Positions 37,569 through 41,744 of a stretch of DNA of 64,000 nucleotides are shown here, piece after piece. The stretch is taken from IMG/VR virus record IMGVR_UViG_3300050491_000011. One strand, written 5' to 3'. Positions within the stretch are counted from its first letter, which is position 1; the number at the start of each line of letters is the position of its first letter. The position numbers were made by a program, and so were the translations under genes. The notes below the pieces were generated by a model. That model was not told the DNA's origin and ran no database searches. It was given only the letters and a program-made list of their open reading frames with translations. This DNA is from a virus (taxonomy: Duplodnaviria > Caudoviricetes).

Positions 37569-38048
37569 ATGCGTAATAATAATTCCGAGCGATTCGTTGC
37601 TCACGGAAACTCGATCGAAGCTACTAATGCTGAAGTTGAGAAAGAAGTTCAGGGTTATCAGGATACTTTGGCCGTCAGTCTGAATGCTGCGATTCAGCCA
37701 GTAAAAGACCTCGCCGAGTCCATCAACGTATTGCATGCCGAAGGTCGTCAAGAGGACGTGCCTAAATTGACCGGCCTGGTGAAGATGCTCGCTCGTGACG
37801 CTGACGTCTTGATTGCCGAGAAGAAAGTGGTTGATGAGGAACTGGCCAAGCTTCAGGCTAATCCACCAACCAAGAAGCGCCATCTGTCGAACCACCACGC
37901 CGGCCTGATGGCTGCTGGTGCTAAGTACCTCGGTCTGTCCCAGCGTGCGACGAACACCGTAGGTAACATCCTCGGCGATTACATGGATTTGATCGATCCG
38001 CTCAAATCTAAACCTGAAACCGCAGAACAAAGTGAGGCTGTATCGTGA
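37569..38048 (+). CDS. Coiled-coil hypothetical protein
   Basis: GAGAGGT SD; first gene of a three-ORF operon. Confidence 0.75.
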   Translation: MRNNNSERFVAHGNSIEATNAEVEKEVQGYQDTLAVSLNAAIQPVKDLAESINVLHAEGRQEDVPKLTGLVKMLARDADVLIAEKKVVDEELAKLQANPPTKKRHLSNHHAGLMAAGAKYLGLSQRATNTVGNILGDYMDLIDPLKSKPETAEQSEAVS

Positions 38049-39889
38049 GTGACGAACAGATCGTAGATCAACCTGAAGAAGAACGCCCGGTCGTATTGGA
38101 AGAGCAGATCTCCAAACCGGCTGAGTTCACTCCGACTCCTGCTGAAGAGCCTGTAGATCTCAGCGAGCCTCAGTGGCAAGCGATCGATGAACTACCATCG
38201 GGCTTCGCTCACGAGCCAGCACATGAGCATCCAGCGCAAGAAGCTGAAGCTCTGGGTGACCTGATGGCCGCGCTTCCTGTCAGTGAGCAGATCGTCGATC
38301 TGTCCGTACCGACTCCGGAAGCTGACCCTACGCCAACTCGCGAAATGATCGGCGACTACACGCCGAACATGAACGTCAATGACGATCAGGGTATCTTGAC
38401 CGTATTGACCGACGAACAACTGGCGAAGTTCTCTCGCGACAATCCGTCCGTTCTGCTGTCCAACTTCTCGGCTTCCGAACTGGACGTCATGTACGACCAG
38501 ATCGAGCGTCAAGTAGCAGCCGCTCAAGCATCTCGTGAAGAACTCGTGAAGAACGGCGGTGGTGCCGGTCTCTACGCTGGCCGTACTGACGATGGCGAAG
38601 TGATCTACATCACCGTCAACGAAGGTAAGGCGATGGGTGCGATTGACGACTATCGCAAAACCACCGCCCCATACCGCGACAACGATGATCTCTTCGGCGA
38701 CGACAGCGAATGGACCAACCTGCCTAAGGTCGGTGATACTCCGATTGCTCCTGGCCGTCTGGACCACGAGAAGTCGAAAGACCCGGTCATGCGTATCCGT
38801 GGTCGTCTGGGTATGGCTGTTGAATACACCAACCCGTTCTGGGCGTCAGGCCTACACATGGTTATCGAAGGCGCTGGTGCGCTGGAAGAACTCTCTCTGG
38901 ATCAGAAGATCCTGACTGAGAAAGCCGAGATGGGTCGTGACAGCAGCGGTTATGTCTACAGTGCTTCGGCTCTGTACCTGAACCGTCCTGTGGTTGACTT
39001 CGCTCTGAGTCAAGTGCGTAGCACCACCATCGGTACTACTGATCCGCAAGTGCTGAAGAGCCTCCTGCTGATTACTGATATCGATCCGCTGGCGCTGGCC
39101 ATGGCTTCTGCCAACATGCCTAACGGCTTCCTGCTGGAACGTCCTTGCCTGGAACAGATCGGCGGTTGCGGTTACGTTACCAAGCGTCAGGTGAACCTGC
39201 GCCGTATGCTGATGGTTCGTCGTTCGAAGTTGTCGGATGACCAAGCTCAGTTCATGAGCAAGCGTGCTGGTACTGTTGACATCAAGACTGTTCTCGGCTA
39301 CCAAGCCAAGATGCGTCCTGAGATCAGCCGTATCGTCCAACTGAAAGGCGGCATGATCCTGCGCTTCAAGGTTCCTACCATCGCTGAATACGAGCGTATC
39401 GCTTCGGCATGGCTGGACTACATGGATCAGCAGTCCCGTAAGGTTGCTGCCAGCAATGCTAACCAGCAAGAGCGTGAAGCGTTCCTGTTGAAGGCATCTC
39501 GTGTCTCCGTTCTGATGGCCTACGGTCACTGGATCGAAGCTATCCTCGAAACCAACCCTGACGATCTGGCTGCTGAGCCTAAAGTAATGATCGAACGCGT
39601 TGGCGAAGAAGGTAGTCCTGAGCAGTACCAGTCTGACGTTCAAATGCAGCGTCTGTTGGTATCTCTGGCTGTCGATCAGGATCTGAGCGATCAGATCATC
39701 GAAGAGCTCAGCGAGTTCATCAACCAGATGACCATGTCTACACCGGTTATCCCGAAGATGAAGTGCCCGAACTGCGGTAAACAGATGCACGGCGACGATG
39801 CTTCGAAGCATCCACACCTTGTAAACCTGAACGCCGTAGAAGTTTTTTTTACCCTACTCCGCCTCAGAATGCAAAAGCTGTCAAGCTAA
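38045..39889 (+). CDS. Putative tail/baseplate assembly chaperone (T4 gp26/gp51-like, G part)
   Basis: Two Cys motifs (PC...GGCG and CPNCG); acidic Pro-rich N-terminus; ends just after a T8 slippery run. Confidence 0.55.
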   Translation: MSDEQIVDQPEEERPVVLEEQISKPAEFTPTPAEEPVDLSEPQWQAIDELPSGFAHEPAHEHPAQEAEALGDLMAALPVSEQIVDLSVPTPEADPTPTREMIGDYTPNMNVNDDQGILTVLTDEQLAKFSRDNPSVLLSNFSASELDVMYDQIERQVAAAQASREELVKNGGGAGLYAGRTDDGEVIYITVNEGKAMGAIDDYRKTTAPYRDNDDLFGDDSEWTNLPKVGDTPIAPGRLDHEKSKDPVMRIRGRLGMAVEYTNPFWASGLHMVIEGAGALEELSLDQKILTEKAEMGRDSSGYVYSASALYLNRPVVDFALSQVRSTTIGTTDPQVLKSLLLITDIDPLALAMASANMPNGFLLERPCLEQIGGCGYVTKRQVNLRRMLMVRRSKLSDDQAQFMSKRAGTVDIKTVLGYQAKMRPEISRIVQLKGGMILRFKVPTIAEYERIASAWLDYMDQQSRKVAASNANQQEREAFLLKASRVSVLMAYGHWIEAILETNPDDLAAEPKVMIERVGEEGSPEQYQSDVQMQRLLVSLAVDQDLSDQIIEELSEFINQMTMSTPVIPKMKCPNCGKQMHGDDASKHPHLVNLNAVEVFFTLLRLRMQKLSS

Positions 39890-40368
39890 CTCCCAACGGC
39901 GAAGTGTATCACCACATCGGCCTCCACGATTTCGGCAGAGAGATCACTCCGTTCACGGAAGGTACTCCTCTGTACAACTTAATCATGGGTAAGACCGTGA
40001 AGGACGACTTCACTTCGCAGTTGATGTTCCTTGAAGCTTACGACGAAACCTTCGGTATCTTCGACCACGCCACATTCGACCACAACGACCCAATGTCTAT
40101 CATCGCGATGCATCCATCCGAAGATATGATCACTGGGTCACGGTTGGTGTCGTACTCGAGGGAACTGATGGCCTGTCGTATTCCTGAGCTGACCAATAAG
40201 CCTATCGATGAACTGATGAGATTACCCAAGTGGTATTTGGATGATCTTCTGAAGGATGGGCGTAAGGCACGGACTCGGGAAGATGCTGAAGTGGAGAAGA
40301 TGCAGAACGATCTCAAGGCTAGTGCCGAAGCTGCGGCTGAACGTTCGCAGAACGGTGAGAAACCGTAG
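39850..40368 (+). CDS. -1 frame extension (T-like part) of the chaperone; track ORF 39904-40368
   Basis: Frame open from 39781; GTG 39904 lacks an SD; IDELMRLPKWYLDDLL resembles GT/gp51 C-terminal motifs. Confidence 0.6.
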   Translation, partial: YPTPPQNAKAVKLTPNGEVYHHIGLHDFGREITPFTEGTPLYNLIMGKTVKDDFTSQLMFLEAYDETFGIFDHATFDHNDPMSIIAMHPSEDMITGSRLVSYSRELMACRIPELTNKPIDELMRLPKWYLDDLLKDGRKARTREDAEVEKMQNDLKASAEAAAERSQNGEKP

Positions 40369-40371
40369 ACA

Positions 40372-40405
40372 GCATAAAGGGCGGGGTAATCCCCGCCCTT
40401 TATGC
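40372..40405. terminator. Perfect 15-bp palindromic terminator GCATAAAGGGCGGGG-TAAT-CCCCGCCCTTTATGC
   Basis: Read directly between convergent stops. Confidence 0.85.
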
Positions 40406-40409
40406 CCTA

Positions 40410-41744
40410 TCAGTCTTTCAGTACCGATGCAACGTCTTTGCGGTGAACCGAGATCGCAGTGTTCTCGATCAGGGTCAGCTTCGACTTGTTATCGATAGCA
40501 AAGCCATCGATCTTCTTCACGACCACGAGGGTAGCCTTACAGAGATCGTACGAAACCTTGTTACGGGTATCGGTCAAGAAGCCCATGCACTGACTGATCG
40601 ACGTGAAGCCGGTCAATACAGAGGACAGCGACTTGAGGAACGGTACGAGCTTGTTGGCGTAGACTTGTTCCAACCCAGGCTTGAGACCTTTGTTGTTGAA
40701 GCCCTTAACCTTAGCCAACACTGGATCGGTACGCCCACGAGCCCAGCTGATCGTGCCGCTGATCTCTTCCGCCCACTTGGTAGGCTTGTAGTCGATGATG
40801 AGCTTCTTGAAGTCATCTTCTTTGATCTGCGTGCGTTCGTTCATCTGGCTGCGGTAAGCGCCCTTAACGTAACTGGCGATCGACTCGAACGAAGTCAACT
40901 TACCGTTGACGTTCATCTGCTTGACGTTATAGCCGTAGCTAAGCGCCAGCTTGAACATGGCCGCGTTGGTCATGTCGAACAGTTCCATCTTGGCGATGGC
41001 CACGTCAACGTCAGCTTCGGTCTCAGCCTTAGCCAGACCGATCAGGAAGTCTTCAACAGCTTCGGCGAATGGAGGAAGCTTGGTCTTGATGACACCACAG
41101 AGGAGTACCATCTCTTCAAGCTGCTTCTCAGGAGCCAGCAGTTGGCGATCCTTGAAGCTGTTCCACTTACCGTTGATGTTGCGCATCTCGCTGGCGATAG
41201 TACCGTCACGAACACGACGAGCCATCTGAGAGACGGCTGAGTTGTTCGACAGGATCTTGTCGACTTCGATGATGTACTTCTGGAGGGAACCGAGCTTCTG
41301 CTCAAGATCGTCCACCGCCGCAGTCGCTTGACCAGCCTGACTCAACCAGTTCCAAAGCTTATTGCAAGCTTCGATGATGTAAGCCAGCACGCTGCCCAGC
41401 GCATTCACTACCGCCTCGTAGGCGGTCTTAACGAAGCTCTCAGTGGATACTTCGTAGTTGGTGCGACTAGGCTCCTGCGTGAAGCTGTTGATCGGGTAAC
41501 GATCGATCAACTTGCCAAGCACTGGGTAAGTACCAGTCAGTGCTTTGATGTTCTCCATGTCGCTACGGCAAACGTATTTACGCTTGACGATTGTTTCGTA
41601 CGTTTCGAAGACCAGCATCATGTCGTCGAATTCTTTCGCGTGGACGGGGTTAGGCGTCTCATCGATGATCGCAACAGGGGTGTCGTCGTTCTCAATCTCG
41701 GCGGATTCAACCGAGAGGTCGGCTAATGTGATACTGGCATTCAT
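40410..41744 (-). CDS. Internal head (ejection-type) protein with protease maturation sites
   Basis: N-terminal SVE/SAE and VSTE-SF motifs match the phiKZ prohead protease S/A/G-x-E consensus. Confidence 0.65.
   Translation of the reverse strand: MNASITLADLSVESAEIENDDTPVAIIDETPNPVHAKEFDDMMLVFETYETIVKRKYVCRSDMENIKALTGTYPVLGKLIDRYPINSFTQEPSRTNYEVSTESFVKTAYEAVVNALGSVLAYIIEACNKLWNWLSQAGQATAAVDDLEQKLGSLQKYIIEVDKILSNNSAVSQMARRVRDGTIASEMRNINGKWNSFKDRQLLAPEKQLEEMVLLCGVIKTKLPPFAEAVEDFLIGLAKAETEADVDVAIAKMELFDMTNAAMFKLALSYGYNVKQMNVNGKLTSFESIASYVKGAYRSQMNERTQIKEDDFKKLIIDYKPTKWAEEISGTISWARGRTDPVLAKVKGFNNKGLKPGLEQVYANKLVPFLKSLSSVLTGFTSISQCMGFLTDTRNKVSYDLCKATLVVVKKIDGFAIDNKSKLTLIENTAISVHRKDVASVLKD

Follow-up and report, generated by a model that had tools for sequence, protein, structure and literature searches.

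A conserved and very probably programmed -1 frameshift site in a core gene of the Chimalliviridae

We analysed a candidate recoding site in a 64,000-nucleotide stretch of viral DNA (the window) from IMG/VR virus record IMGVR_UViG_3300050491_000011, a 188-kb record estimated to be about 75% complete. The gene in question is an open reading frame (ORF) on the plus strand at 38045..39889 that starts with GTG, encodes 614 amino acids and belongs to the family of phiKZ gp77, 201phi2-1 gp136, PhiPA3 gp074 and Goslar gp081 (phrog_4585, E = 9e-71). Near its 3' end, a run of eight T residues (T8, plus strand, 39843..39850) lies within GTA GAA GTT TTT TTT ACC (39836-39853), where it is decoded as V-F-F-T, including the invariant Phe-Phe pair F601-F602, 12 codons ahead of the stop. 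Because the ORF reads GTT TTT TTT ACC here, T_TTT_TTT (39844-39850) constitutes an in-phase X_XXY_YYZ heptamer. The -1 frame stays open between about 39800 and a stop at 40366-40368; its translation includes FFYPTPPQNAKAVKLTPNGEVYHHIGLHDFG and reads FFYPTPPQNAK...HHIGLHDFG... across the site. From 39850 to 40368 on the plus strand, this frame provides 172 codons and a stop, matching phrog_12109 (E = 1e-18) and the family of PhiPA3 gp073, 201phi2-1 gp135 and Goslar gp082. Residues 1-602 of the zero frame followed by the 172 residues of the -1 frame would give a long form of 774 amino acids. The stretch between the run and the zero-frame stop (39851..39889, plus strand) is dual-coding, specifying the conserved C-terminal helix TLLRLRMQKLSS in the zero frame and a Pro-rich linker (YPTPPQ...) in the -1 frame. 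A GTG at 39904..39906 in the -1 frame is the sole possible independent start ahead of a conserved H-x5-F-G motif in the window, and no GGAG, GAGG or AGGA resembling a Shine-Dalgarno (SD) sequence lies upstream of it. The 614-residue protein also carries a CPNCG motif (residues 573-577), and IDELMRLPKWYLDDLL is found more distally. Several of these features had been described in an earlier note made from the sequence alone, namely the T8 and its distance from the stop, the -1 frame open into the downstream ORF with predicted products of 614 and 774 amino acids, the GTG without an SD sequence and the two motifs, and each is borne out by the DNA and its translations.

The slippery run is conserved in all relatives examined. 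We collected loci from 4 distant annotated phages, 62 IMG/VR loci retrieved with a profile of the upstream protein, and 10 further named phages: Goslar, KTN4 (species phiKZ), SPFM17 (Seoulvirus), an EL-like phage, three Vibrio phages, RSL2, Miami and RAY. The resulting 78 loci, 67 of them unique, span Goslar, phiKZ-type, PhiPA3, 201phi2-1, SPN3US-like, EL-like, RSL2, Erwinia and Vibrio phages together with IMG/VR contigs. Every one of the 78 has a run of 6 to 9 T residues (T6-T9) on the aligned Phe-Phe of an x-F-F-T-L motif, 10-25 codons ahead of the stop, and past the run the -1 frame remains open for 151-186 codons in 78 of 78 loci; the +1 frame is mostly shut within 20 codons. When synonymous codons were resampled using each gene's own usage, runs of at least six T residues were expected in 11.3 of the 67 unique loci and observed in 67 of 67. 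The T-run is thus kept beyond the demands of protein sequence and codon usage. Within the window gene itself, all 12 other Phe codons are TTC and none (0 of 12) is TTT. The unique loci carry T_TTT_TTT (35), T_TTT_TTC (18), T_TTT_TTG (3, found in the pEa_SNUABM_54 clade) or A/G_TTT_TTT (11), and a canonical in-phase heptamer is therefore present in 56 of 67 (84%). The earlier note had proposed that homologues be aligned in search of a Phe-Phe-encoding T-run with an open -1 frame, and its claim that a programmed -1 shift joins the two ORFs is strongly supported by this family-wide conservation.

The downstream ORF behaves as an extension of the upstream one. In an alignment of -1 translations from 39 diverse loci, conservation starts at the run itself and continues through the motifs F-F-Y-P-x-x-P, H-V-x3-F-G, Y-x3-G-I, H-P-x-E-D and L-P-R. 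No ATG, GTG or TTG occurs between the run and the invariant F-G of H-V-x3-F-G in 31 of the 39 loci, an SD-like motif is present in 1 of 39, and one ORF lacks ATG entirely. Searching 1.84 billion cluster representatives (50% identity) with a profile of the extension returned 1629 family members; among the best 150 of these, lengths range from 102 to 191 amino acids, the called proteins begin anywhere from profile position 1 to 63, and an in-frame fusion with the body, as we call the shared zero-frame protein, occurs in none. That the two frames are nowhere joined argues that a short and a long product are both wanted. Each of the 16 annotated records of relatives that we inspected (T4 aside; 15 analysed here) shows two genes, none shows a joined coding sequence, and the annotated starts of the downstream ORF differ by up to about 90 codons. 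In pEa_SNUABM_54 (L002 2756-2983) and KTN4_102 (L069 3821-4063) the start is placed 85-87 codons past the run, so that under half of the conserved domain remains; in RAY, the annotated start of gp266 (L077 3236-3784) is pushed far upstream, into the gp77 homologue.

We conclude that the run is very probably a site of programmed -1 recoding in a core gene of the Chimalliviridae, giving proteins of 614 and 774 amino acids from one mRNA. Most ribosomes would stay in frame through GTT TTT TTT ACC and terminate 12 codons further on, releasing a 614-residue protein that ends in the conserved amphipathic helix. A minority would slip by -1 on T_TTT_TTT, with the Phe tRNAs re-pairing to UUU UUU and UAC read as the next codon, and would thereby replace the terminal helix with the Pro-rich linker and the conserved 172-residue helical domain. 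For the phage of the window, the peptide predicted across the junction is HPHLVNLNAVEVFFYPTPPQNAK. Both forms would come from a single mRNA that ends at a hairpin just past 40368. This perfect, G+C-rich hairpin of 15 bp (40372..40405; -32.7 kcal/mol, z -7.7) lies between the extension ORF and a convergent minus-strand gene (40410..41744) and is a probable bidirectional terminator ending the transcription unit; its short T tail explains why a simple terminator scan does not report it. By contrast, the 60 nucleotides past the T-run, a stretch that includes the zero-frame stop, show no stronger folding than the body of the gene. In a phiKZ-type phage, RNA sequencing (RNA-seq) contigs of two independent studies run with even depth through gene 77 and the complete extension ORF and break off near the stop of the latter, a pattern that fits one transcript, although a contig over two ORFs is no proof of one.

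Several observations weigh against this reading. A stimulatory element, either a hairpin or pseudoknot or an SD-like sequence, is common at -1 frameshift sites, albeit not obligatory. We found no conserved downstream RNA structure (mean minimum free energy z +0.32 over 62 unique loci; z +1.2 in the window). Nor did we find an upstream SD-like stimulator, which was expected in 5.4 of 67 loci and occurs in 1. With neither kind of stimulator detected, the signal would be a bare U-run, like several phage tail-chaperone sites, and slippage efficiency may be low and is not predictable. The 11 unique loci with A/G_TTT_TTT would need a first-position mismatch in the P site or slippage of a single tRNA. 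In the window, the GTG at 39904 could start a 154-residue protein that retains the conserved motif. Finally, neither a fused protein nor a junction peptide has been seen; in Goslar, peptides were mapped separately to gp081 and gp082 against a database that lacked the junction.

The Goslar data do bear on expression of the two parts. Liquid chromatography-tandem mass spectrometry of a purified virion preparation detected gp081 by 24 peptides (an estimated 15-35 copies) and gp082 by 1 peptide (an estimated 2-5 copies), with label-free quantification per mass of 2.35 and 0.34, respectively (bioRxiv 10.64898/2026.04.21.720040, Table S4). The resulting gp082:gp081 ratio of about 1:7 is as expected of a minority long form, a weak indication given the single gp082 peptide. 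The same preparation also contains the non-virion proteins PhuZ and chimallin at about 170 and about 126 apparent 'copies' (Table S4), a further point on the opposing side. As both exceed gp081 and gp082, the peptides demonstrate expression rather than virion membership or fusion, and low-copy 'virion' assignments in that table need independent support. Neither gp081 nor gp082 is part of the 28-protein cryo-electron microscopy model of Goslar.

The foremost alternative is transcriptional slippage, in which the host RNA polymerase or the phage non-virion polymerase would add one U on the T-run in some transcripts and so yield the same 774-residue protein. A conserved element that consists of a bare homopolymer without RNA structure or SD-like stimulator would suit a polymerase, as would the occurrence of the run in all three phases of the frame and the 11 of 67 unique loci without a canonical heptamer. 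In addition, where Phe-Phe is encoded by TTT TTT, the preceding base is T in 35 of 46 loci, indicating that longer runs are favoured, a preference that would aid slippage of either kind. Three features speak for the ribosome. The heptamer is in phase in 84% of unique loci; the run is just T6, short for polymerase slippage, in 19 of 67; and 18 loci hold T_TTT_TTC despite the option of a synonymous C-to-T change that would lengthen the run. Likewise, in RNA-seq contigs of a phiKZ-type phage from three studies, the consensus carries the unedited T7 found in the DNA, and therefore edited mRNA is not the majority, although contigs drop minority variants. On this evidence slippage is probably ribosomal, and a polymerase-based origin of the long form appears unlikely, although a minority of transcripts may be edited.

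A model of two separate genes fares considerably worse. Here the downstream ORF would be translated alone, initiating at the GTG at 39904 or through termination-reinitiation at the 39889 stop, and the T-run would be merely a pair of Phe codons. In favour of this view, the GTG follows the zero-frame stop by 15 nucleotides and precedes the conserved motif, and both the uniform two-gene annotation and the PHROGs database, which keeps two families, follow this model. Across relatives, however, the start codon that it needs is missing ahead of the conserved motif in 31 of 39 loci, and the starts chosen by annotators remove up to half of the conserved domain. Also against the model are the -1 frame of the downstream ORF, shared by all 78 loci, a use of TTT that runs counter to codon bias, and a conservation that begins right at the run. 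We consider independent translation very improbable. An error in homopolymer length or a recent inactivating indel, such that the ORF is truly continuous or its downstream part a decaying remnant, is scarcely credible: some sequencing chemistries are error-prone at homopolymers, but the frame relation is the same in 78 loci from independent isolates and metagenomes over about 20 years of sequencing, the T8 recurs in a separate IMG/VR contig (L005/L006) encoding a 92-96% identical protein, and the extension is conserved as a protein, is confidently modelled and shows no in-frame fusion among the best 150 representatives.

Structure prediction provides a view of what ribosomal slippage would join. 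An AlphaFold2 model of the body built from a 38-sequence alignment has a mean predicted local distance difference test (pLDDT) score of 79.5 and a predicted template modelling score of 0.77, with residues 1-101 disordered. Foldseek searches of BFVD with this model return, after jumbo-phage homologues, T4-like models of about 250 amino acids annotated as 'baseplate hub assembly protein' or 'baseplate hub subunit' (E 9e-5 to 1e-3, probability 1.0, template modelling (TM) score 0.5-0.58 by target), a comparison of predicted models on both sides. The Pfam family PF12322 (T4_baseplate) aligns with residues 506-580 of the window protein, including CPNC, at 11 bits (E 0.33), below the gathering cut-off of 24.5; T4 gp26 and gp51 themselves score 216 and 178 bits, and a weak match is found in 2 of 38 family members. 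A cluster of the Atlas that includes PF12322 members reaches a score of 0.91. Searching the whole 188-kb record with PF12322 yielded nothing and is uninformative, as control genomes were also silent. At the level of sequence, alignment of the body profile to single T4 gp26 and gp51 with hhalign was not significant (probability 31% and 6%), which counts against closer kinship. By its predicted fold, the body is thus a remote, enlarged structural relative of T4 gp26/gp51 and not a family member, as the fold matches T4-like hub models but the Pfam score stays below threshold and the hhalign result is not significant. The likeness to gp26/gp51 drawn in the earlier note accordingly holds for the predicted fold and a sub-threshold PF12322 alignment, and fails at the level of hhalign and the Pfam threshold. 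Searches of the PDB found nothing, whether by sequence with the body profile and the extension or by Foldseek with the two models.

The model of the extension (pLDDT 87.6) combines a beta-hairpin with a small helical bundle and a terminal helix of 40 residues. A shape search of the ESM Atlas found no fold relative for it (no match above a TM score of 0.32). We also considered the P2 protein GpE, which reached an Atlas feature score of 0.81, a chance level, and rejected it, as its family PF06528 matches 0 of 39 members. The point of the shift lies inside the last helix of the body model (residues 597-613). Four cysteines in the body, C368 (codon 39146-39148), C375 (39167-39169), C574 (39764-39766) and C577 (39773-39775), form a C-x6-C ... 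C-x2-C pattern that is co-conserved in 33 of 38 sequences and may constitute a zinc site that would join the C-terminal region with the protein's middle part.

The expression logic resembles that of known phage tail genes. A conserved -1 frameshift is reportedly found in tail genes, among them those of the tail assembly chaperones lambda G/GT and P2 E/E+E'. As in both systems, the gp77-family site would shift ribosomes by -1 on a slippery run a few codons ahead of the upstream ORF stop, to give a minor, C-terminally extended form that shares its N-terminal body with the major form, and in most relatives the downstream ORF lacks its own start. The likeness to P2 extends to the signal, a T-run with no conserved stimulatory structure found; TTTTTTG, the variant of the pEa_SNUABM_54 clade, is the sequence of the phage P2 E/E+E' site. 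The resemblance to lambda ends there. The gp77-family gene does not lie between tube and tape-measure genes, it is four to five times larger, with products of 614 and 774 amino acids against about 140 and 280 for the lambda pair (G about 100-150 amino acids), and it matches no tail assembly chaperone Pfam or PHROG family, with a body that is gp26/gp51-like by predicted fold. Lambda G and GT are absent from virions, whereas peptides of both gp77-family parts occur in the Goslar virion preparation that also holds PhuZ and chimallin. We therefore do not retain the view of the earlier note that this is a G/GT-type tail assembly chaperone pair: position, size and family all differ, and only the expression logic is common.

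Other comparisons sharpen the picture. With T4 gp26 and gp51 the gp77 family shares the predicted fold and a weak PF12322 alignment over a C-terminal region with a CxxC motif (CPKC in T4 gp51), but its protein is 2.5 to 3 times longer and its N-terminal 100 residues are disordered. T4 gene 26 (L080 3803-4429; NC_000866) also has two products, full-length gp26 and an in-frame C-terminal 26' of 95 amino acids; 26' arises by internal initiation in the same frame and not by a frameshift. In T7 gene 10 (10A/10B) and E. coli dnaX (tau/gamma), -1 slippage makes two products in a set ratio, and the gp77 family would likewise obtain two products from one gene, with ribosomes slipping by -1 close to the 3' end of the ORF or within its 3' portion. 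Whereas dnaX combines A_AAA_AAG with two stimulators, an SD-like element upstream and a hairpin downstream, the gp77 family has none that we could detect, and whereas the dnaX shift shortens the product, the shift described here would add a folded domain.

The frameshift gene is a member of the conserved gene set of nucleus-forming jumbo phages. A tblastn search with the upstream protein matched 225 GenBank phage records, all of jumbo phages infecting Pseudomonas, Erwinia, Salmonella, Serratia, Klebsiella, Ralstonia, Vibrio and others, and the PhiPA3 record itself links gp074/gp073 with 201phi2-1 gp136/gp135 and phiKZ gp77 by similarity. Both PHROG families are of unknown function, a Pfam search with the two window ORFs returned nothing significant, and megablast of the locus against GenBank phages gave no match. 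The names 'gp77' and 'gp136' also appear in the literature for unrelated proteins, namely the Goslar capsid decorator, the PCH45 small terminase and a PhiPA3 capsid protein, which we set aside. In the window the gene is flanked by a gp78-like gene, a gp79-like gene and a gene for a virion RNA polymerase beta-type subunit, and the same synteny is present in Goslar, KTN4, RAY, SPFM17 and sm033. Neither a tube nor a tape-measure gene adjoins it. The gp78-like gene (37569..38048, plus strand) encodes 159 amino acids, has no PHROG or Pfam match and occupies the phiKZ gp78 position, where all annotated relatives that we inspected have a small gene. The sequence GTGA (38045-38048) contains both the TGA that ends the gp78-like gene and the GTG with which the frameshift gene starts. 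The overlap suggests translational coupling in a conserved pair at the phiKZ gp78/gp77 positions.

Our analysis identifies a very probable case of a known type of recoding in a new gene family, conserved through a whole phage family. We found no description of this frameshift in the searchable literature and genome records, including the Goslar structure preprint, the PCH45 transposon sequencing preprint, PRFect and a 2016 recoding review; the earlier note, likewise, was aware of none in this family. Recognizing it corrects annotation across the family, where the records inspected show two unrelated hypothetical genes, the second often truncated. We know of no recoding case in the gp26/gp51-like gene family, to which the frameshift adds one. 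On the basis of the predicted fold, the short and long forms may act in tail or baseplate-hub assembly, with the extension serving as an extra binding module on a fixed fraction of molecules. A more specific proposal, which we regard as speculative and rather doubtful as it stands, is that the pair is the contractile-tail hub counterpart of lambda G/GT: the gp26/gp51-like body would chaperone assembly of the hub or tape measure, the extension would tether a fixed minority of molecules to a second tail component, and the slippage ratio would control initiation of the giant tail. If so, T4 gp26/26' would embody the same logic through internal initiation. The gene offers a way into the assembly of the tail and baseplate hub of phiKZ-like phages, where neither part is in the Goslar cryo-electron microscopy model, and a bare U-run without stimulators in phages with their own RNA polymerases offers a clean test of whether such a signal is read by ribosomal or polymerase slippage.

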